This document shows, in pieces, positions 891 through 50,895 of a stretch of DNA of 57,358 nt (the stretch's first letter is position 1; every line of letters starts with the position of its first letter). The stretch covers positions 1-57,358 of the forward strand of contig CAILTR010000101.1 in assembly GCA_903837175.1 (NCBI GenBank). Direction: 5' to 3'. The DNA comes from an uncultured bacterium. GTDB taxonomy: Bacteria > Patescibacteriota > Minisyncoccia > Moranbacterales > GWC2-37-73. The notes below the pieces were generated by a model. It was not told the DNA's origin. It worked only from the letters and a program-made list of their open reading frames with translations, and made no database searches. The translations under genes were made by a program, and so were the position numbers.

Positions 891-2678
891 ATGGAAATTC
901 GAAACATTGCAATCATCGCTCATGTGGATCATGGCAAAACAACTTTGACTGATGCGATTATGCGTCAAACTGGCATGGTGGAAGAAGGAGTTAGTATGGA
1001 TAATAACGCTCTAGAACAAGAGCGTGGAATTACGATTTATGCTAAAAATACTTCGATTGATTATCGCGGAACAAAAATTAATATCGTGGACACCCCAGGT
1101 CATGCTGATTTCGGCAGTGAAGTGGAACGCGTGCTTCGAAGTATTGATAGCGTGCTGTTAGTGGTGGACGCGCAAGAAGGACCAATGCCCCAAACGCGCT
1201 TTGTATTGAAAAAATCTTTGGAGTTAGGGCTTAAACCGATTGTGGTGATTAATAAAATAGATAAGCCAGCGGCTGATCCTGACTTGGTGCAAGAACAAGT
1301 GTATGAGCTTTTTATGGATTTGGGCGCTTCTGACGAGCAACTTGATTTTACGACCGTGTACGCCATTGGTCGTCAAGGAATTGCCAAAGAACATCTAAAG
1401 GATGAATCTGATAATTTGGAACCTTTGTTGGATATGATTTTACTGAAAGTTCATGCCGCTAAAGCTGACAAGGATGCCCAACTTCGCATGCAGCCATTTA
1501 ACCTAGGTTATGATAACTTCCTAGGGCGCTTAGCGGTGGGACGCATTCATGAAGGGACGATTAAAGCTGGGGCAACTTATGTGCTGAAGAAAACTGATGG
1601 CACGCTGGAGAAATCACGCGTCACCAAACTCTATAATTTCAAAGGCACAGTTCGTGAAGAAGTCGCGGAAGCTTACGCTGGAGATATTGTGATGGTGGCT
1701 GGTTTTCCAAAAATTGATATTGGAGAAACGATTTGCGAAAGCGAAGAGCAGGAGTCTTTGCCAGCTATTACGATTGATGAGCCAACCATTTCGCTGCGCT
1801 TTTTAGTTAATGATTCGCCGTTTGCGGGACGCGAAGGAAAGTTTGTAACTAGTAAACAAATCCGCGAGCGCTTAGAGAAGGAATTGGAAGTGAACGTGGG
1901 CCTTAAAATTGATTTTTCAACTTCAGAATATTATACCGTCTTTGGTCGCGGAGAACTGCACATTGCGGTACTTTTGGAAAATATGCGTCGCGAGGGATAT
2001 GAAATGCAAGTTTCGCAACCGCACGTGATTATTAAAGACGTGGATGGCGTTAAAAGTGAACCTTTTGAAGAAGTAACGGTGGATGTGCCAAGCGAGCTGG
2101 CTGGGACAATTATTGAAACGCTGGGAAAACGAAAAGGCATTATGTCAGATATGCATGTGCACGGTAGTCAAACTCGCCTTTTGTTTGAAGCACCAACCCG
2201 CGGAATGCTTGGTTATCGCGGACAGTTTGTCGTCGATACGAAAGGTGAAGGCATTATGTCTTCTCGGGTGGTAGGTTTCCGGCCTTACGTAGGGGATATT
2301 AAAAAACGCGAAGTTGGCTCCATGATTTCAAATGGAACTGGTAAAGCGCTCGGCTTTTCGCTGGCAAACCTGCAGGATCGAGGCGTGCTGTATATTCCAG
2401 CAGCAACTGAGGTGTATGAAGGTCAAGTCATTGGAAACGTCTCTAAGGGCGAGGAAATGACCGTCAACCCCCTCAAGGGAAAACAACTGACGAACATGCG
2501 TTCTTCGGGAACAGATGATGCAATTCATTTAGTCCCACCGTTTGTGCTCTCAATTGAACGCGGGCTGGAAATTATCAATGATGACGAATATCTGGAAGTT
2601 ACTCCGCATTCTGTGCGTCTGCGCAAACAATTCTTAAAAGAAGGTGATCGCACGAAAGCTGGAAGGAAGGGGAAATAA
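891..2678 (+). CDS. typA: translational GTPase TypA/BipA
   Basis: 595 aa; G motifs AHVDHGKTT, DTPGH, NKID; full-length BipA-like architecture. Confidence 0.95.
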   Translation: MEIRNIAIIAHVDHGKTTLTDAIMRQTGMVEEGVSMDNNALEQERGITIYAKNTSIDYRGTKINIVDTPGHADFGSEVERVLRSIDSVLLVVDAQEGPMPQTRFVLKKSLELGLKPIVVINKIDKPAADPDLVQEQVYELFMDLGASDEQLDFTTVYAIGRQGIAKEHLKDESDNLEPLLDMILLKVHAAKADKDAQLRMQPFNLGYDNFLGRLAVGRIHEGTIKAGATYVLKKTDGTLEKSRVTKLYNFKGTVREEVAEAYAGDIVMVAGFPKIDIGETICESEEQESLPAITIDEPTISLRFLVNDSPFAGREGKFVTSKQIRERLEKELEVNVGLKIDFSTSEYYTVFGRGELHIAVLLENMRREGYEMQVSQPHVIIKDVDGVKSEPFEEVTVDVPSELAGTIIETLGKRKGIMSDMHVHGSQTRLLFEAPTRGMLGYRGQFVVDTKGEGIMSSRVVGFRPYVGDIKKREVGSMISNGTGKALGFSLANLQDRGVLYIPAATEVYEGQVIGNVSKGEEMTVNPLKGKQLTNMRSSGTDDAIHLVPPFVLSIERGLEIINDDEYLEVTPHSVRLRKQFLKEGDRTKAGRKGK

Positions 2679-2680
2679 TA

Positions 2681-2765
2681 AACATTGAACATAGAACATG
2701 GAGCATGGAGCATGGAACATGGAGCATAAATGCCTAATGCCTAATGCCTAATGCCTAATGCCAAA
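2681..2765 (+). repeat. stop-proximal heptamer word array (CATGGAG then AATGCCT units)
   Basis: Immediately 3' of the typA stop: (CATGGAG/CATAGAA)n then AATGCCT x4.5, period 7. Confidence 0.9.
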
Positions 2766-2853
2766 TTTCCAACTCGCCTCGATTCGAAATGTTTTTCTCA
2801 CCAATTCGAAGCGGGTGTCTAATAAAATCTAAAATTTAAAAGCTCACTATAAC

Positions 2854-2887
2854 AAAAAAATCCCGATGAAAGTCGGGATTTTTTTTG
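2854..2887 (+). terminator. typA terminator
   Basis: AAAAAAATCCCGA-TGAAAG-TCGGGATTTTTTTT. Confidence 0.8.
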
Positions 2888-3051
2888 TTGATTAAAAATA
2901 AGCTAAAGCACTTTACCAAGAATTGAAATTTTTTGGTTTTTTCTAATTATGCCGAAACTATGCGATCGTCGAGTTTTGGCATAATCTCTTTTGAATTTTT
3001 TTATTGGGAGGTTTTGAATTTAAGGGTTACGTAATGAGCTACGCAATAAAA

Positions 3052-3450
3052 TTAATTCGAAAGGTCGCGGATAGTTCTGGCGGCAAGGGTGTTGTCAGTT
3101 AGAATGCCGTGAATAACGATTTTATCACCAGGCTGGAGAGCAGAGAACTCAATATTCTGCCAAGTCTTATTAAAGAGGCGAGTTGCTTTGGTCGTGGTTA
3201 CAGTGAAGTCTTTACTGCTATAAGAGATAGTTAAGGAGTCAGTTGAAACAGAGCTAATAATGCCCGTTAGGCCTTTGCGGTGACGCTGAACCCCATTATT
3301 TTTAGGGAGCGTTTTCCCTTTTAAATTACGCTCATGGCGAAAATTTTGTCTTTCGAGCGTGTTGGCACTGGCGTCTAGGGCCATGCCGGAGGTTCCCAAC
3401 ATAAGAGCCATCCCACTGATTGCAATGGCATTGCGCATTTTATTTTTCAT
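3052..3450 (-). CDS. secreted hypothetical protein
   Basis: 132 aa; signal peptide MKNKMRNAIAISGMALMLGTSGMALDASA; AAGGA SD; no domain recognised. Confidence 0.6.
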   Translation of the reverse strand: MKNKMRNAIAISGMALMLGTSGMALDASANTLERQNFRHERNLKGKTLPKNNGVQRHRKGLTGIISSVSTDSLTISYSSKDFTVTTTKATRLFNKTWQNIEFSALQPGDKIVIHGILTDNTLAARTIRDLSN

Positions 3451-3571
3451 ATTTTCCTTATTTAAAAATTAACTGAATCAGGCGATGATTCATATTTTCT
3501 TATACGCAGGTAAAAAAGATTTCTTTTTGGTTGCCGTAGCTTGCTGGTTGTAGTAGAATTTGATTACGCTT

Positions 3572-5021: not shown

Positions 5022-6089
5022 ATGCAATCAAGAGATTATAACTATAACGTGTATTTTTTCTTTGTCGTTTTATTTGGGGTAAGTATCGTCGCTTACTTTA
5101 TTTTTCAACCTTTTTTCTTTGCAATTATTTTGGCTGGTGTGCTAGCTGGAGCTTTGCAGCGACCGTATAATTTTCTGGTGGAAAAAACTGGAGGACGTAA
5201 GCATTTAAGTTCGTTGCTGATTTCTTCACTCGGCATAATTATTTTTTTTGCAATTGCGGGTGGGGTTATTGGAGTGGTAGCTAAAGAGACAACTTATTTG
5301 TATCAAAGTGTTATTTCGGGTGGTAGTATTTATCAGAAATACGCTGAGCCAACAATTAACTATATAAATCAAAATCAATTCCTCCTGTCGTTAGGCTTGG
5401 AAAATGTTATCAATAAAAACACCATCGGTAACATTAGTTCGCAAGCTGGGCAGGCCGTGCTAGTGCTAGTTCAAAGAACTTACCAAGGTATCGCCGATAC
5501 AACCTTTCTTTCAATTGTAATTTTCTTTACGTTGTACTATTTCTTAATCGAGGGAAAGAGTTTAGTTTCAAAGATTATTTATCTTATCCCGCTTAAAAAT
5601 TCGCATAAAAAAATCTTAATTAAAAAATTTACCTCAATTACTAGGGCAACAGCCAGGGGGGCATTGATAATTGCGTTTATCCAGGGCTCAATTGGAATGC
5701 TACTGTTTTTAGCTTTAGGTATTCCATCTGCTTTTATTTTAGGAGTCTTTATGATGTTTTGCGCCCTAATCCCAATGTTTGGTTCTGGATTGATTTGGTT
5801 TCCAGTTGCAGTAGTAATGTTTTTAACTGGTAATGTCTGGCAGGGTTGGGTTGTATTGGGCGTTGGCGGTGGGTTAATTTCAACGATTGATAATTTCTTG
5901 CGACCCAAATTGGTTGGTAAAGAGACGCAGATGCATCCTCTGATTGTTTTCTTCGCTACTTTGGGCGGGATTGGGATTTTTGGTTTTCTGGGGCTACTGA
6001 TCGGGCCGATAATTGTCGCGCTGTTTCTTTCACTTTGGGATATTTACGCCGAAGAGTTTAAAGGACAACTCGAGAAATACAACACATAA
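5022..6089 (+). CDS. AI-2E family transporter (PerM/UPF0118)
   Basis: 355 aa polytopic protein; conserved C-terminal LRPKLVGKETQMHPLIVFFATLGG block; AGGAG SD. Confidence 0.85.
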   Translation: MQSRDYNYNVYFFFVVLFGVSIVAYFIFQPFFFAIILAGVLAGALQRPYNFLVEKTGGRKHLSSLLISSLGIIIFFAIAGGVIGVVAKETTYLYQSVISGGSIYQKYAEPTINYINQNQFLLSLGLENVINKNTIGNISSQAGQAVLVLVQRTYQGIADTTFLSIVIFFTLYYFLIEGKSLVSKIIYLIPLKNSHKKILIKKFTSITRATARGALIIAFIQGSIGMLLFLALGIPSAFILGVFMMFCALIPMFGSGLIWFPVAVVMFLTGNVWQGWVVLGVGGGLISTIDNFLRPKLVGKETQMHPLIVFFATLGGIGIFGFLGLLIGPIIVALFLSLWDIYAEEFKGQLEKYNT

Positions 6090-6152
6090 CACATAACACA
6101 TAGCACATAGCACAAAACATAAAGCATGGAGCATAGAAGATAGAACACATGA
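6081..6152 (+). repeat. stop-proximal word array (CATAACA/CATAGCA/CATGGAG units)
   Basis: Overlaps and follows the AI-2E transporter stop; same word family as 2681-2765. Confidence 0.85.
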
Positions 6153-6187
6153 TACGGGTCATACGCAATATAGAGCTTGCGGAAATT

Positions 6188-6320
6188 AAGTTAGCAATTT
6201 TTACTTCCCTTGTTTGCTTTTGGGAGCACGCTTCTTGGTCAGGAGTTATGACCAATCGCTCAGTACTCGCTGTCGCTCATAAGCCTCCCAAAAGCAAACA
6301 AGCTCGTAAAAATTAGAACC
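6188..6320 (+). repeat. structured ~130-nt intergenic repeat, copy 1
   Basis: AATTTTTAC (6196-6204) pairs GTAAAAATT (6306-6314); 17-bp helix 6210-6226/6285-6301; hairpin TTGGTCA/TGACCAA 6235-6255; TCGCTCAG tail. Confidence 0.85.
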
Positions 6321-6356
6321 ATAAATTGCGCTTGACCCCATAATGCATAATACATA

Positions 6357-8577: not shown

Positions 8578-8595
8578 GAAAAGCAGGTGCTAAGA

Positions 8596-8793
8596 TTACG
8601 CTAGGGTAACATTAACAGCGTTCAAGCCTTTTGGAGATTCTTCTGATTCGAAAGAAACATTGTCTCCTTCTTGCAGTTGATCAAATGAAACACCAACTAA
8701 AGAATTGCTGTGGAAAAATAAGTCTTTTCCCAATTCTGGAGAGGTGATAAAGCCGAAGCCTTTGTCAGTTTTCTTTTTGATTACACCATTCAT
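8596..8793 (-). CDS. cspA: cold-shock protein
   Basis: 65 aa; RNP motifs KGFGFI and FFHSN. Confidence 0.95.
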   Translation of the reverse strand: MNGVIKKKTDKGFGFITSPELGKDLFFHSNSLVGVSFDQLQEGDNVSFESEESPKGLNAVNVTLA

Positions 8794-8875
8794 AGTTTTG
8801 AAGTGATATTTAGGTTTGTAAAATTTGAAATTATGCGGGGCTCGACGATTTTTCCAACAATATTTTCACATTGCA

Positions 8876-8904
8876 AGTTTAGCACGTAAATCAGAAAAAG
8901 TCAA
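8876..8904 (-). promoter_or_regulatory. sigma70-like promoter for cspA with ~75-nt leader
   Basis: TTGACT-17 nt-TAAACT on the minus strand. Confidence 0.55.
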
Positions 8905-13420: not shown

Positions 13421-14144
13421 GACTTAGCCACATAATTTCAAAAATGCTTTTCAAGGTATCGTAAATTTTTTTGCTTTCGATAATCAAGGCGATATTTTCG
13501 CGGTGCGCGATGATGGCAATTTTATCTTTAGAATAGAGATTGATTTCAGCTGAGAAAGTGAATTGATTTGATTTGATAATTTTCATTTGGCGTAGGTGCT
13601 TGGGGTCTTTTTCATTCATGCCGTTCATAAAAGCTGATTGGACGGCAAACATCCGCAGGGGAATTTTCTGGGCAATTCTTTTTTGCATATAATAGTCGAG
13701 GATAAAGGACTTGTCGAAGAAGTCGATCCGGTCATCGGAATACCACCCCAAGATTTCGGTGTCTTTGTATTGCAGGGTGTCTTTATAAACATCTTTGATG
13801 CCTTCGACGCCTTCAAAATAGCGAACTTTGGGTTTGCGTTCCATGGCATTGGCAATTGAAAGCAATTCCGGCATTAGTTTGCTGATGGTTTCAGTTTTTT
13901 CGCGCAGGTGTTCTTCAATTCGCAATGGGTTTTCGGCCAGATAGATGTTATGGCCTTTTCTCTTCACAAGGCTAACATAGCCTTTATTTTTCAGGGCTTC
14001 GATTTCAAGATAGACCGTCGCACGCTTGATGCCCGATTTTTGGGTGATTTTAGCAATATTGCCTTCACCCAATTCCAAAAGAGCCAGATAGACTTTGGCT
14101 TCTTTTTCGCTGAAGCCCGCCTCGATTAAATTTTGGTATAACAT
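13416..14144 (-). CDS. TrmB-family transcriptional regulator
   Basis: 242 aa; N-terminal winged HTH (GFSEKEAKVYLALLELGEGNIAKITQKSGIKRATVY) typical of TrmB. Confidence 0.85.
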   Translation of the reverse strand: MLYQNLIEAGFSEKEAKVYLALLELGEGNIAKITQKSGIKRATVYLEIEALKNKGYVSLVKRKGHNIYLAENPLRIEEHLREKTETISKLMPELLSIANAMERKPKVRYFEGVEGIKDVYKDTLQYKDTEILGWYSDDRIDFFDKSFILDYYMQKRIAQKIPLRMFAVQSAFMNGMNEKDPKHLRQMKIIKSNQFTFSAEINLYSKDKIAIIAHRENIALIIESKKIYDTLKSIFEIMWLSQ

Positions 14145-14166
14145 ATTTTTATATTTTTAGGAAACT

Positions 14167-14300
14167 AAGTTAGAAATTTTTACTTCCCTTGTTTACTTTT
14201 TAGGACACGCTCTTGGCTAGGAACTATAGCCAATCGCTCAGAATTCACTGTCGTTCATAATGGTCTAAAAAGTAAACAAGCTCGTAAAAATTCAAAGGTA
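14167..14300 (+). repeat. structured ~130-nt intergenic repeat, copy 2
   Basis: P1 14175-14183/14284-14292; helix 14189-14203/14265-14279; hairpin TTGGCTA/TAGCCAA 14213-14233; TCGCTCAGAAT tail. Confidence 0.85.
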
Positions 14301-14448
14301 TTATTTAACTAGAGACATGACTTGATTGTGACCCTTTTTTCTTAAAATGATATAAAAGCTGTTACTATTTCATTATACGCTTATTTGGCTTAAAAGTCAA
14401 CTAAATTGGTCTATTTTTAAAGTAATATAGTCAATATTGCAAATATTC

Positions 14449-16930: not shown

Positions 16931-17276
16931 ATTATAGATGTTAGAGCTTAGATTTTAGAATCACTACGGATTACGAATTTTTAAGAGTCCACAAATCTAC
17001 AAAAATTGAGGGCTAACTTTTCTTTTTAGGAAAGAAAAGTTACAAAAGAAAATCGCACCTGATGAAGATACTGTGGCAAAAACTTCGTTCCTCGCTAAAA
17101 TTCCCGCTGCACTTTTTCTGCTGAAAAAGCTCGCTGAAAATTTTTTAACGCTCATCACTTGTTTTTTGCCTACGTACTTCATATGGTGCAGAAAGAATGC
17201 AAAATGCAAATACAAAAAAGCACATTGTGTGATGGCTTAGGAGAAAACTGAATATGTAAAATACGCAACAAACAAA

Positions 17277-17308
17277 GTTACTAGCTACTTGTTACTAGTT
17301 ACTAATAA
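17277..17308 (-). repeat. AGTAACTAGTAAC-type 3' trailer (after obg)
   Basis: Sense strand reads TTATTAGTAACTAGTAACAAGTAGCTAGTAAC directly after the obg stop. Confidence 0.8.
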
Positions 17309-26085: not shown

Positions 26086-26160
26086 GATAAGATGGAACAT
26101 GGAACATGAAACATGGAACAAAAATTTTTAATGGCTAATTTATAATGCCTAATGAAATGC
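26086..26160 (+). repeat. stop-proximal word array (CATGGAA units, AATGCCTAAT)
   Basis: Immediately 3' of the SIMPL gene stop; same word family as 2681-2765. Confidence 0.85.
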
Positions 26161-26370
26161 GGAAGAAATAAAATAGAAATAGATTAGAGCTGGGATAGAA
26201 ATAATTAGTTTGTAATAAGTAATTTATTAAACAATATGCTTTTAGTTTATCCAAAAAAGTTTTTGGCTGGCGTGGAGCCAGATGATGAAGATGAGGATGA
26301 AGATGGGAGCGATTTCGGTTGCTAATAAAACGGACTATGGTCATGTAGGAATTATAGTCTTTAGAAATTA

Positions 26371-26500
26371 ATTTAGAAATTTTTACTTCGCTTATTTACT
26401 TTTTAGCGCCCGCGCTTGACCGAAAACAATGGTCAAATGCTTAGCTTGCTGTCGCTCGCATGGCCTAAAAAGCAAACAAGCTCGTAAAAATTGTGAGGTA
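26371..26500 (+). repeat. structured ~130-nt intergenic repeat, copy 3 (more degenerate)
   Basis: P1 26378-26386/26484-26492; hairpin TTGACC/GGTCAA 26416-26436; two A-C mismatches in the long helix; terminator follows at 26555-26586. Confidence 0.8.
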
Positions 26501-26554
26501 ATTTTGGGCTGAAAATGTAGATTGCGAATGACCTTTAGTAAAGTTTTGAATTTA

Positions 26555-26586
26555 AAAAAGCTTGCCAATTTGGCAGGCTTTTTTTG
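26555..26586 (+). terminator. terminator downstream of repeat copy 3
   Basis: AAAAAGCTTGCC-AATTT-GGCAGGCTTTTTTT. Confidence 0.65.
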
Positions 26587-26708
26587 TTGAAATAAATTGC
26601 AAGGGCTATGCGTAGAAATTTAAAGATACCCTTGGGGGGTATATTAAAAATCCTAAATCCTAATTTCTAATTTCTAATTAATTAATAATTTATTAAAAAA
26701 ACAAAGTT

Positions 26709-30252: not shown

Positions 30253-30292
30253 TAATTTAATTGATTCAGTATAAGTTATGTTTTCAGAAACT

Positions 30293-30424
30293 AAGTCAGA
30301 AATTTTTACTTTGCTTGTTTACTTTTTAGAGACCGCGTTTGACCAAAAGACAATGGTCAAAAGCTTAGCACTCTGTTACTTATATGGCCTAAAAAGCAAA
30401 AAAGCTCGTAAAAATTCAGAGGTA
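30293..30424 (+). repeat. structured ~130-nt intergenic repeat, copy 4 (more degenerate)
   Basis: P1 30301-30309/30408-30416; hairpin TTGACCA/TGGTCAA 30339-30360; helix TTTTTAG/CTAAAAA conserved. Confidence 0.8.
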
Positions 30425-30503
30425 ACCTTTAGCTAGAACTAGGAATTGCGTATGGCTTGTTTTTTGTTTGTCGAGTTGAGTATTTTTATGGTAGGGTTAA
30501 AAG

Positions 30504-31289: not shown

Positions 31290-31431
31290 CTTTAAATCAA
31301 TTGTGTATTTGATTATGGCGCTATGATTTTAGTAAACACCCAAATTTTTAATTTTGAAGTTTGAATTTTTAATTAAATTTTTAATGTTAAAATGTTTTAA
31401 AAATTAAGTTATTTATTAATTTGATATTGAT

Positions 31432-31465
31432 TTCAAATTTCAAATTTCAAATTTTAAATTAAAAA
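31432..31465 (+). repeat. TTTCAAA word array
   Basis: GATTTCAAATTTCAAATTTCAAATTTTAAATT upstream of 31477; the same word flanks the lgt insert. Confidence 0.8.
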
Positions 31466-31476
31466 TTGCAACGATT

Positions 31477-31743
31477 ATGTTGTTAGAAATTTCTCTCGAT
31501 GGCAACGATATTAAGCTAACTTTAAAAAACGGTCGTAAGACGGTTGATGTTTTTGCATGGAACGACGAGTACACCTTAAGTGAAAAACTGTTGCCTAACA
31601 TCGATGGCTTGCTTAAGAAAAACAAAGTCTCAAAAAAACAAATCGAAAAAGTGACAACCAAAATTACCAAGACTTCGGGCGTGACTAGCATCCGGATTGT
31701 TCAGACAGTCGCTAAGGCTTGGAATGTCGCAAGCAGATTTTAG
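31477..31743 (+). CDS. small protein, possibly a minimal TsaB-like fragment
   Basis: 88 aa; LLPNIDGLLKKNKVSKKQIEKV ... TSGVTSIRIVQTVAKAWN loosely resembles the N-terminal half of TsaB/YeaZ. Confidence 0.4.
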   Translation: MLLEISLDGNDIKLTLKNGRKTVDVFAWNDEYTLSEKLLPNIDGLLKKNKVSKKQIEKVTTKITKTSGVTSIRIVQTVAKAWNVASRF

Positions 31744-31836
31744 ATTTTAGATTCTAGATTTTAAAAAAAAGGCTGAAAAGCTGGACCTGGGAATATAGAA
31801 GCTTTTAAATCAGAGCTAGGTATATCCTAAGAATAA

Positions 31837-32254: not shown

Positions 32255-32400
32255 TTAGATAAATCACTAATCAGCCGCGAATTGATTCGCGAATATTCAC
32301 TAATAATATGGGAATTAATTCACCAACAAGCGTGAATTATAAATTCAAAGTATTAGGGAATATTCGAGAAAAATTAGGGTTTGATTCGGGATAAAAACAC
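32255..32400 (+). repeat. CACTAAT/TCGCGAAT/ATTCGAG-type leader (before the DUF883-like gene)
   Basis: AAATCACTAATCAG..CGCGAATTGATTCGCGAATATTCACTAATAAT ... GAATATTCGAG ... GATTCGGG in the sense orientation of the downstream gene. Confidence 0.7.
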
Positions 32401-32401
32401 T

Positions 32402-32647
32402 ATGAACAAAAAACAAGTTAAAAGAGCAGCCGTAAGGACAGTTAATAAAGCAAAGGAAACAGGCGCCGAGCTTGAAAAGATCGCAAGAAGAGAATATGCG
32501 AAAATTAAAAAGCAAATGGACGCGACTGCTAAAAAAGTAGAAGGGTTCGTGAAAAAAAATCCTGAGAAAGCCGCGGCTATTTCCGCTGGGATTGGTCTAG
32601 CCCTCGGGACGATTGCAGGAATTTTGGCTTCAAAGAAAAAGAAATAA
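32402..32647 (+). CDS. YqjD/ElaB-like (DUF883) tail-anchored protein
   Basis: 81 aa from ATG 32402; charged helical region then C-terminal TM AAAISAGIGLALGTIAGILASKKKK. Confidence 0.5.
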   Translation: MNKKQVKRAAVRTVNKAKETGAELEKIARREYAKIKKQMDATAKKVEGFVKKNPEKAAAISAGIGLALGTIAGILASKKKK

Positions 32648-32686
32648 GTCAGTTAGTAACTAGTAATCAGTAACTAGTAACCAGCA
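32648..32686 (+). repeat. AGTAACTAGTAAC-type 3' trailer (after the DUF883-like gene)
   Basis: TAACTAGTAATCAGTAACTAGTAACCAGCAAAT directly after the stop; near-identical to 41921-41956. Confidence 0.85.
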
Positions 32687-40637: not shown

Positions 40638-41186
40638 ATGAAAACAAAAGAAATTAAAAAAGAAAATTCAATTGTTCCCCAGGAAATAATTGAGCAAAAG
40701 ATTTATTTGATTCGGGGCAAAAAAGTTATGCTTGATAAGGATTTGGCTGTGCTGTATGGAGTGGAAACTAAAACCTTAAAAAGAGCAGTTAGGCGAAATA
40801 TTGAAAGATTCCCAGAGGATTTTATGTTTCAATTGGGCATTGAGGAAACTAAAATTCTAAGGTACCAATTTGGCACCTTAGAAAAAGGTCAATATGCTAA
40901 GTATTTGCCTTTTGCATTTACTGAGCAGGGTGTGGCGATGTTAGCTGGAGTATTGAAAAGCAAGAGAGCGATTGAGGTTAATGTGCAGATTATTCGAACT
41001 TTTGTAAAACTTCGCGAAATGATTATCAGTAATAAAGAGTTGAGAACTAGGATTGAAGAAATGGAAAGAAAATATGATAAAAGATTTAAGGCCGTGTTTG
41101 ATACGTTAAGGAATCTTTTAGAAAGCAATTTGCAAGAGAAGGAAATTGAAAAGAATGCTCCAATTGGTTTTAAAATTAAAAGATAA
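40638..41186 (+). CDS. ORF6N-domain DNA-binding protein
   Basis: 182 aa; IYLIRGKKVMLDKDLAVLYGVETKTLKRAVRRNIERFPEDFMFQL is characteristic of ORF6N (KilA-N related). Confidence 0.8.
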   Translation: MKTKEIKKENSIVPQEIIEQKIYLIRGKKVMLDKDLAVLYGVETKTLKRAVRRNIERFPEDFMFQLGIEETKILRYQFGTLEKGQYAKYLPFAFTEQGVAMLAGVLKSKRAIEVNVQIIRTFVKLREMIISNKELRTRIEEMERKYDKRFKAVFDTLRNLLESNLQEKEIEKNAPIGFKIKR

Positions 41187-44918: not shown

Positions 44919-45020
44919 TTGTATTACGTATATTGTAGAATGTATAAAGTATGAATTCATACAAAAAATACATTTTGAATTTTATACATAATACAAAATA
45001 CATTATACATAATACTATTC
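44919..45020 (+). repeat. ATACA/TGTAT word spacer with GTATGAATTCATAC palindrome
   Basis: Between ftsK and the rodZ-like gene; 14-bp perfect palindrome at 44949-44962. Confidence 0.75.
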
Positions 45021-47356: not shown

Positions 47357-47510
47357 AAAGTATACTTTTGATATAAGTTAGGGTGTTAATTAAATTAATT
47401 AACCAATCAACAAAAAAATTGTGCGGTTTTTTTTGTTTTATTGGGCTAAAAAATAAAAATTCAAAAATAAAAAAGTTACATCATTATTAGCGGTTATTTA
47501 TTTAAAGGTA

Positions 47511-50588: not shown

Positions 50589-50688
50589 GAAGATTTTGTC
50601 ACTAATCGACTCGAATATTATCTCAAATATTCACGAATGATTAGAGAATATTAGCGAAAAATTAGTGATTGATTCGCGATTTAGATTC
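50589..50688 (-). repeat. CACTAAT/ATTCGTGA/ATTCGAG-type leader (before efp)
   Basis: Fills the rpsR-efp spacer; divergent member of the family seen before ssb and rpsF. Confidence 0.7.
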
Positions 50689-50895
50689 TTATTTAACGAC
50701 AAATGGTGCTAGGGCCATAACGCGAGCGCGTTTAATAGCTTGCGCGAGGGTGCGTTGATGCTTAGTGCAAGTTCCATGTCTCTTGGGAGGATAAATCTTT
50801 CCTTGAGAATTCATAAAACGACGAATTAGATAAGCATCTTTGTAATCAATCTTGTCCATCTTTTGATCACAGAAATAGCAAGTTTTCTTTTCCAT
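50689..50895 (-). CDS. rpsR: 30S ribosomal protein S18
   Basis: 68 aa; DYKDAYLIRRFMNSQGKIYPPKRHGTCTKHQR. Confidence 0.95.
   Translation of the reverse strand: MEKKTCYFCDQKMDKIDYKDAYLIRRFMNSQGKIYPPKRHGTCTKHQRTLAQAIKRARVMALAPFVVK

Follow-up and report, generated by a model that had tools for sequence, protein, structure and literature searches.

Four intergenic repeats of a Moranbacteria-like CPR genome as probable fossil copies of a foldback MITE with an ISL3/ISAon1-type transposase partner

Four similar repeats lie in the spacers of the stretch of DNA that was analysed (57,358 nt; the window), and they raise the question of whether such a family represents a structured RNA or mobile DNA. The sequence-only reading had left both possibilities, describing a candidate ncRNA or a MITE/REP-like family. 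Our comparison with related genomes suggests, with a probability of about 0.88, that the four repeats represent fossil copies of a foldback MITE of ~200 bp from Moranbacteria-like CPR bacteria, the transposase partner of which would be of the ISL3/ISAon1 type.

All four copies were recovered on the + strand at the positions at which they had been reported, with 82% mean column identity in the alignment. A de novo repeat search of the window grouped them into one family (D1), and the 25-mer AGAAATTTTTACTTCCCTTGTTTAC from the 5′ arm was found four times in the window at ≤3 mismatches compared with 0.00 expected; with four copies in 57 kb, the density is about one every 14 kb. Gene positions and Pfam searches of the neighbours confirmed that all copies are intergenic and adjoin unrelated genes, namely an AI-2E transporter gene and lgt (copy 1), a divergent TrmB-like gene on the − strand and a radical SAM/SPASM gene (copy 2), a SIMPL/DUF541 gene and a Glu/Leu dehydrogenase gene (copy 3), and a class A PBP gene and an Amidase_2 gene (copy 4). 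Indels of 1–2 nt and compensatory stems argue against coding by the repeat.

The extent of ~130 nt proposed before was found to hold for a core region, not for the unit itself, since conservation continues for ~35 nt outward on each side to terminal inverted repeats. The full element is ~200 bp with terminal inverted repeats of ~26 bp (GGGTCATACGCAA.../...TTGCGTATGACCC; consensus GGGTCATACGCAA(A/T)(T/A)TA(T/G)GGTTC), and in a flank-inclusive alignment of 39 copies the homology was limited by GGGTCATACGCAAATTATGGTTC... on the left and ...GAACCATAAATTGCGTATGACCC on the right, which pair with each other. Copy 1 spans 6156–6338 (+ strand, 183 bp; nhmmer model positions 4–204 and alignment), with a core at 6190–6321, previously given as 6188–6320, that comprises the long helix and two hairpins (covariance model [CM] score 140 bits, E = 2.7e-30; fold z-score −6.5). 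It carries a ~17-nt deletion in the right arm, and the same deletion is present in its ortholog L029 (Ja1_bin-0683). Copy 2 spans 14135–14335 (+ strand, 201 bp; alignment and nhmmer) with a core at 14169–14299 (14167–14300 in the sequence-only reading; CM 159 bits, supported by folding); its left terminal repeat is decayed (GGTATAACATAT... compared to GGGTCATACGCAA...), the right end reads ...TTGATTGTGACCC, and its ortholog L011 (MJ110830A_bin-153) shows 91% identity. Copy 3 spans 26338–26534 (+ strand, 197 bp; nhmmer and alignment) with a core at 26372–26499 (CM); mutations have altered both terminal repeats (TGGTCATGTAGG... and ...GCGAATGACCT), and the ortholog L005 (Ja1_bin-0683) shows 94% identity. 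Copy 4 spans 30262–30458 (+ strand, 197 bp; nhmmer 144 bits, model positions 13–202) with a core at 30295–30423 that has the lowest CM score in the main family (110.6 bits). It is the most decayed of the four, with an unrecognisable left terminal repeat and mismatches in the stems.

The family was found to be widely represented in related genomes. A core scan of one genome per species (pattern AATTTTTACTT-N(90-120)-GCTCGTAAAAATT) yielded 36 loci, of which 35 came from six genome bins, i.e., five lake bins and one labelled Candidatus Moraniibacteriota (Patescibacteria/Parcubacteria group); such core-keyed sampling is biased towards copies with intact cores. Parts of the window showed 78–89% DNA identity to contigs of these bins, which places the window in the same lineage. 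A search by nhmmer with the full-length model detected 46 places, and overall at least 59 copies in 51 loci were found, distributed over at least six genome-bin species and lake and groundwater metagenome contigs. A metagenome scan based on the terminal repeats only gave 16 loci, which included the main family and divergent subfamilies (L040; L041/L042/L046/L048) with a different core sequence but the same core architecture. One groundwater metagenome element (L044, 731–934) has the same terminal repeats around an unrelated GC-rich core that also forms a foldback (DNA fold z-score −5.2); thus, the same group of insertion sequences (IS) would mobilise more than one MITE family, and the 130-nt core is dispensable for carrying these terminal repeats. 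Remnants consisting of the core only were found as well (L001, L007:2947, and L020:1499).

Inspection of the flanks, which had been proposed as a check, detected 8-bp AT-rich target-site duplications in copies from the related genomes, the best in the window matching at 6 of 8 positions. Among the 33 copies with both ends present, eight had perfect duplications (8/8) in strict register and 16 had matches at ≥6/8, compared with 0% and 3.4%, respectively, when each left flank was paired with the right flanks of other copies. The eight perfect octamers were ATAATTTA, CTTATCAA, TTTATATG, AATCTTTT, TAAATCTC, CATAAATT, AATTTTAT, and TTTTTATA. Comparison of orthologous spacers revealed both filled and empty states: the L007 copy is absent in L010, and the copy at L008:4517 is absent in L021. 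Furthermore, the spacer upstream of one gene (window ~52990) is free of the element in the window but was filled independently in L006 and in L015, and in L030 the spacer of window copy 1 was hit separately by a young insertion, the duplication of which is a different one. No exact empty site with a single octamer was recovered in these between-species spacer comparisons, since the compared genomes belong to different species and their spacers align poorly.

Roughly half of the copies lack a duplication. In three contigs from other samples (L047, L052, and L053), the left and right flanks belong to two different insertions, as judged against L010, L014, and L017: L047 combines the left flank of L014 with the right flank of L017, and L053 the left flank of L017 with the right flank of L010. 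Recombination between copies or mis-joining by the assembler at the 200-bp repeat would account for this, and such chimeric flank combinations may explain the copies without duplications.

The ends of the MITE were also found on complete insertion sequences. LJ_bin-4100, a bin with at least nine MITE copies, contains contig L036, on which a 1.42-kb insertion sequence (1795–3213) is bounded by the termini of the MITE, and its ORF pieces match PF01610 (DDE_Tnp_ISL3; E = 5e-12 and 2e-21). This IS is flanked by a perfect 8-bp duplication read off the sequence (CAAAAAAG at 1787–1794 and 3214–3221), so that both MITEs and IS carry AT-rich 8-bp duplications, as is expected of an ISL3/ISAon1-derived family. 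Intact relatives with the same termini were found in L037 (2452–3893) and L038 (~606–1989), and the L038 protein (P0005) matched the NCBIfam models of the ISAon1 family (NF049917, 1e-134; NF049916, 9e-16). Homologues of the transposase number in the thousands, some of them named from Falkowbacteria and Howlettbacteria. The L036 IS, the sole copy found within a MITE-bearing genome, has an in-frame TAG. We considered the split transposase of L036 to be a frameshifted pseudogene and rejected this, because the NCBIfam layout of the ISAon1 family consists of separate upstream and downstream ORFs; the split frame in L036 and L037 is therefore normal, and the only lesion of L036 is the TAG.

In the partner IS, the DDE ORF is shifted to the +1 frame with respect to the N-terminal ORF, and the overlap (L036 2190–2280, L037 2860–2960, L038 990–1030) contains GATTTTTTAAAAG. 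In L038/P0005, 31 nt are missing at the ORF overlap and a single 427-aa protein results; most database homologues correspond to the downstream ORF alone (289–328 aa). The two parts may be expressed as two proteins or by recoding. In L036 (1597–3221), a MITE copy (1605–1786) lies beside the IS (1795–3213) and the same octamer occurs three times (CAAAAAAA, CAAAAAAG, CAAAAAAG), the CAAAAAAG beside the IS doubling as the duplication of the adjoining MITE copy; this indicates two insertions into one target by the same machinery. The sequence shared by MITE and IS is limited to ~26–28 nt at each end. A derivation of the core from IS-internal sequence was considered and rejected, since only these ends align and the CM finds no core within L036–L038.

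A Y1/RAYT-like transposase had been suggested as the enzyme to look for, and the repeats would then be REP/BIME-like units moved by a Y1 (RAYT/IS200-like) transposase acting on single-stranded DNA hairpins. The repeats do resemble REP/BIME sequences in being intergenic, palindromic and multi-copy, they form hairpins and are all on the same strand in the window, and their orientation correlates with GC skew (32 versus 12). However, where skew and gene direction conflict it is gene direction that the orientation tracks: next to genes on the negative-skew strand, copies still follow the gene (5 versus 1). REPs are units of 20–40 nt that are handled by a Y1 enzyme without target duplication, and to our knowledge neither IS200/IS605 nor REP systems make target duplications. 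In contrast, the unit found here is ~200 bp, has 8-bp duplications, and ends in 26-bp inverted repeats identical to those of an IS encoding a DDE transposase (PF01610), which makes both a REP-like nature and a Y1 partner very improbable. One locus, L025, carries a solo left element end (3018–3076; model positions 4–62) followed by a 120-aa ORF (3133–3495) containing ...FQGRFKS...YLLYLSAYI..., which by eye resembles Y1/IS200-like transposases. As a RAYT/Y1 lead this ORF was rejected, because it gave no Pfam or NCBIfam domain match.

The window copies themselves appear to be old and decayed, since three of them are common to sister species, their ends and duplications are degraded, and the 57-kb window was found to hold no gene for a transposase. 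Copy 1 is flanked by a decayed duplication (CATGATAC at 6148–6155 and CATAATGC at 6339–6346, 6/8 matching), the flanks of copy 2 show no recognisable target duplication, and a target duplication is absent from the flanks of copy 3. With 6/8 as the best duplication and two copies without a recognisable left terminal repeat, the MITE status of the window copies rests on younger homologues elsewhere. Copies 1, 2, and 3 have orthologs at the same position in sister species, as would also be seen if the family consisted of non-mobile small RNA genes or regulatory sites kept in place by vertical descent. This is hardly tenable in view of the terminal repeats, the duplications, the filled and empty spacers, the independent insertions into the same spacer, the IS with the same ends, and the unrelated genes that the copies adjoin. 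The family thus consists of short, non-coding, dispersed elements with terminal inverted repeats, a duplication of fixed length, ends shared with an IS, and presence/absence polymorphism, as is characteristic of MITEs, and the MITE reading proposed from the window is borne out by the terminal repeats, the 8-bp duplications, the filled versus empty spacers and the matching autonomous IS, an outcome that the sequence-only reading had set down as speaking for a plain MITE and against a functional RNA. The MITE family itself is an ordinary kind of mobile DNA, an ISL3/ISAon1-type foldback MITE.

A second question concerns the core, the base pairing of which had suggested an ncRNA. Folding of the copies confirmed the paired ends (AATTTTTAC with GTAAAAATT; in copy 2, + strand, 14175–14183 with 14284–14292), a long continuous helix of 16–18 bp (6209–6226/6285–6302 in copy 1; 14188–14203/14265–14280 in copy 2, + strand) and an internal hairpin (HP1 in copy 2, + strand, 14213–14233, TTGGCTA-GGAACTA-TAGCCAA), with fold z-scores of −2.4 to −6.5 for the window copies. 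The compensatory variants that had been described are present both in the hairpin (TTGGTCA/TGACCAA, TTGGCTA/TAGCCAA, TTGACC./.GGTCAA) and in the long helix (TTTTGGG/CCCAAAA, GTTTGC/GCAAAC), and conserved loop and junction motifs of the core were CTGTCG (in copy 2 near 14250, + strand), CTCAG, and TGGYC. The compensatory changes were robust when more copies were added. A covariance model of the core covered 59 sense-strand copies, with no further copy in the window, and among the 52 distinct sequences 96.2% of cells were paired; double changes were found at 16 of 33 pairs compared with 7.4±1.6 in shuffled alignments (reached in 0 of 500) and 2–6 in slid controls. All five core helices contributed to the covariation, and the compensatory pairs span subfamilies of only ~65% sequence identity. 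Full elements were predicted to fold as a single foldback with the same architecture (z-score −8.5 for L030 and −12.5 for the divergent L041). Paired variation in the terminal-repeat helix is expected from recognition by the transposase; the five-helix covariation, the conserved motifs and the orientation bias described below exceed what terminal-repeat transposition alone requires.

One explanation is that the core functions as a structured RNA module, either one that the MITE carries or one exapted from it. The co-transcribed + strand would then fold into a three-way junction with an effect in cis, for example on how the mRNA is processed, stabilised or terminated, or on expression of the transposase. 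Both the covariation and the orientation bias would be explained in this way, and the compensatory pairs in all five helices, the architecture shared by L030 and L041, the conserved motifs, and the core-only remnants are in favour of such a module; the sampling, however, favours intact cores. Conservation of orthologous copies speaks on both sides: copies 3 and 1 were in the top 2.4% and top 13% of local windows, respectively, on a mosaic background of identity, but copy 2 was only as conserved as its own flanks and the intergenic DNA adjoining copy 3 was equally conserved.

Wobble pairs were compared between the strands. A first count of 223 G-T versus 81 A-C cells seemed to favour the + strand; this count was confounded by + strand folding, GC skew and a single consensus G-T pair. 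With that pair left out, the CM alignment gave 25 G-T versus 38 A-C cells, which is no G-U excess for RNA from the + strand, and the − strand was no cleaner. Covariation of the generic structured-RNA kind was thus present, though the wobble test gives no RNA-specific signature. The exact complement of the other arm has taken the place of the internal loop TTCC/CTC in L007:2947, in L020:1499, and in the L040 subfamily. One and the same multi-nucleotide block variant separates the members of two orthologous pairs, L026/L032 and window copy 2/L011, which points to exchange between copies. Such palindrome-correcting conversion and mosaic exchange can produce covariation without selection on an RNA. 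With no G·U excess and with copies corrected towards a perfect palindrome, the constraint on the core looks to be at the DNA level and not on a strand-specific RNA.

Database and signal searches were in line with this. No Rfam match at gathering thresholds was found in the whole window, a search of two copies against Rfam 15 with E-values up to 10 gave chance-level scores only (best 22 bits compared with a gathering score of 57), and ARAGORN detected no tRNA or tmRNA in the window. Promoter and terminator consensus scans around the four copies found no shared site in or next to the element. The terminator at ~26555–26586 that had been taken as a sign of a discrete transcript lies outside copy 3, and the scan calls it on the − strand only (26575–26563), with a + strand hairpin followed by a T run also seen by eye; it therefore does not speak for a discrete transcript. 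This hairpin has A and T runs on either side (AAAAAAGCTTGCCAATTTGGCAGGCTTTTTTT), lies 20 nt beyond copy 3 and is conserved in L005; it looks like a bidirectional terminator, with the MITE located between it and the upstream gene.

The orientation of the copies was biased. Between co-directional flanking genes, 24 copies were in the same orientation as the genes and seven in the opposite one (p = 0.003), and the preference was retained on the negative-skew strand as given above. Symmetric terminal repeats should impose no orientation, and the scans gave no shared promoter or terminator consensus that would explain the bias; it points to a cost or benefit of transcribing the element that depends on its orientation. 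It is in keeping with an RNA module, and a core acting in the sense orientation of the neighbour genes, for instance by processing, stabilising or terminating the mRNA or by regulating ISAon1-type transposition in cis, would be one way to account for it; in that case, tiny-genome CPR bacteria would distribute a functional RNA element by transposition. Considering the wobble counts, the possible origin of the covariation in conversion, the lack of an Rfam match or of a shared promoter or terminator consensus, and the unrelated neighbour genes, we regard such a function, and the RNA module as a whole, as unlikely. Of the ncRNA candidate, the compensatory changes are thus real and the RNA signature is absent, and the ncRNA reading is unproven rather than refuted.

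The preferred reading of a foldback MITE would work as follows. A transposase supplied in trans would bind the terminal repeats and insert the element into AT-rich octamers of intergenic spacers. The 130-nt "structured RNA" would be the part of the element that is not derived from the IS. It has the form of a long, imperfect palindrome, which closes a junction bearing two small hairpins. The pairing of this core would most likely be kept at the DNA level, either by foldback- or hairpin-templated correction together with exchange between copies, or because source copies are selected to form a foldback in which the two ends meet; the pairing is less likely to stem from a host RNA gene. The excess of co-oriented copies would then arise because insertions in the opposite orientation, once made, are selected against in co-transcribed spacers.

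The closest published analogue is the ISL3-associated MITE of Microcystis aeruginosa, an element of 187 nt with ISL3-matching repeats and 8-nt direct repeats, such 8-nt repeats having been reported for ISL3 elements in the same study (PMC11448079). Both MITEs are short and non-coding, fold into stem-loops, have 8-nt repeats and have ends that match an ISL3-family IS in the same genome. They differ in host phylum, and their sequences and terminal repeats are unrelated, the Microcystis element starting with GGCTCTTCG... and the CPR element with GGGTCATACGCAA...; moreover, the CPR partner belongs to the ISAon1 family with its two-ORF transposase. The IS of L036, L037, and L038/P0005 resemble that family in matching its models, in the layout of upstream and downstream ORFs and, in L036, in an 8-bp duplication, whereas the 130-nt core of the MITE has no detectable counterpart inside these IS. 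By general background, ERIC/IRU and Correia/NEMIS elements are foldback MITEs of Proteobacteria that form whole-element hairpins of 100–200 nt in intergenic regions and are co-transcribed with their neighbours, and the CPR MITE is alike in these respects. It has no sequence relation to them, and its partner IS is identified. Correia elements make TA duplications. ERIC and Correia elements are reported to have orientation-dependent effects on mRNA fate, and by analogy similar effects are a plausible reason for the orientation bias of the CPR MITE. Our literature search found no description of this MITE family, nor of MITEs or ISAon1/ISL3 elements in CPR bacteria.

Other repeats and conserved stretches were observed in the window. 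Period-7 tandem arrays were found at 2681–2766, 6081–6126, 17276–17304, 26092–26153, 26660–26679, 31343–31471, 31735–31763, 32654–32684, 44984–45015, and 47447–47474; they fill intergenic spacers with heptamer units that include AACATGG, AATGCCT, AACACAT, ATGGAAC, and ATTTCAA. Heptamer arrays also occur in related loci (TCATTCGAG repeats in L021; CATAATA repeats beside copy 1 and in L029), and they look like a genome-wide trait of the lineage. A second, unrelated repeat of ~50 nt (ATTAGGGAATATTCGAGAAAAATTAGGGTTTGATTCGGGAT...; families D5 and D10) is present in three same-strand copies of 70–85% identity (32352–32404, 40681–40730, and 50640–50692). Two pairs of similar G+C-rich hairpins followed by T runs (families D8 and D9; 780–826/24471–24517 and 47266–47309/57269–57312) have the sequences CTGCC.G.GGCAGTTTTT and AAAAGATGA...TCATCTTTTT, and are probably related intrinsic terminators. 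The 300-nt stretch at 8595–8895 is 100% identical to the sister species locus L029 (Ja1_bin-0683) on a background of ~83%, within an identity profile that is mosaic overall. It was considered as a possible RNA and rejected: it gave no Rfam match and comprises a 65-aa cold-shock protein gene (8596–8793, − strand; KGFGFI motif read from the translation) with its upstream leader.

Recognition of the family prevents the repeat from being annotated as a new RNA gene and spurious ORFs from being called across it, and the foldback covariation without an RNA wobble signature is a caution that palindromic mobile DNA alone can yield covariation. Repeats of 200 bp exceed short reads and can therefore break or mis-join metagenome bins; the copies also mark recombination sites and are usable as insertion-polymorphism markers between close CPR populations. 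These results document an active-looking ISAon1/ISL3-type IS/MITE pair in Moranbacteria-like CPR genomes, and the orientation bias of its copies opens a testable route to the effects that such insertions have on expression in compact genomes.
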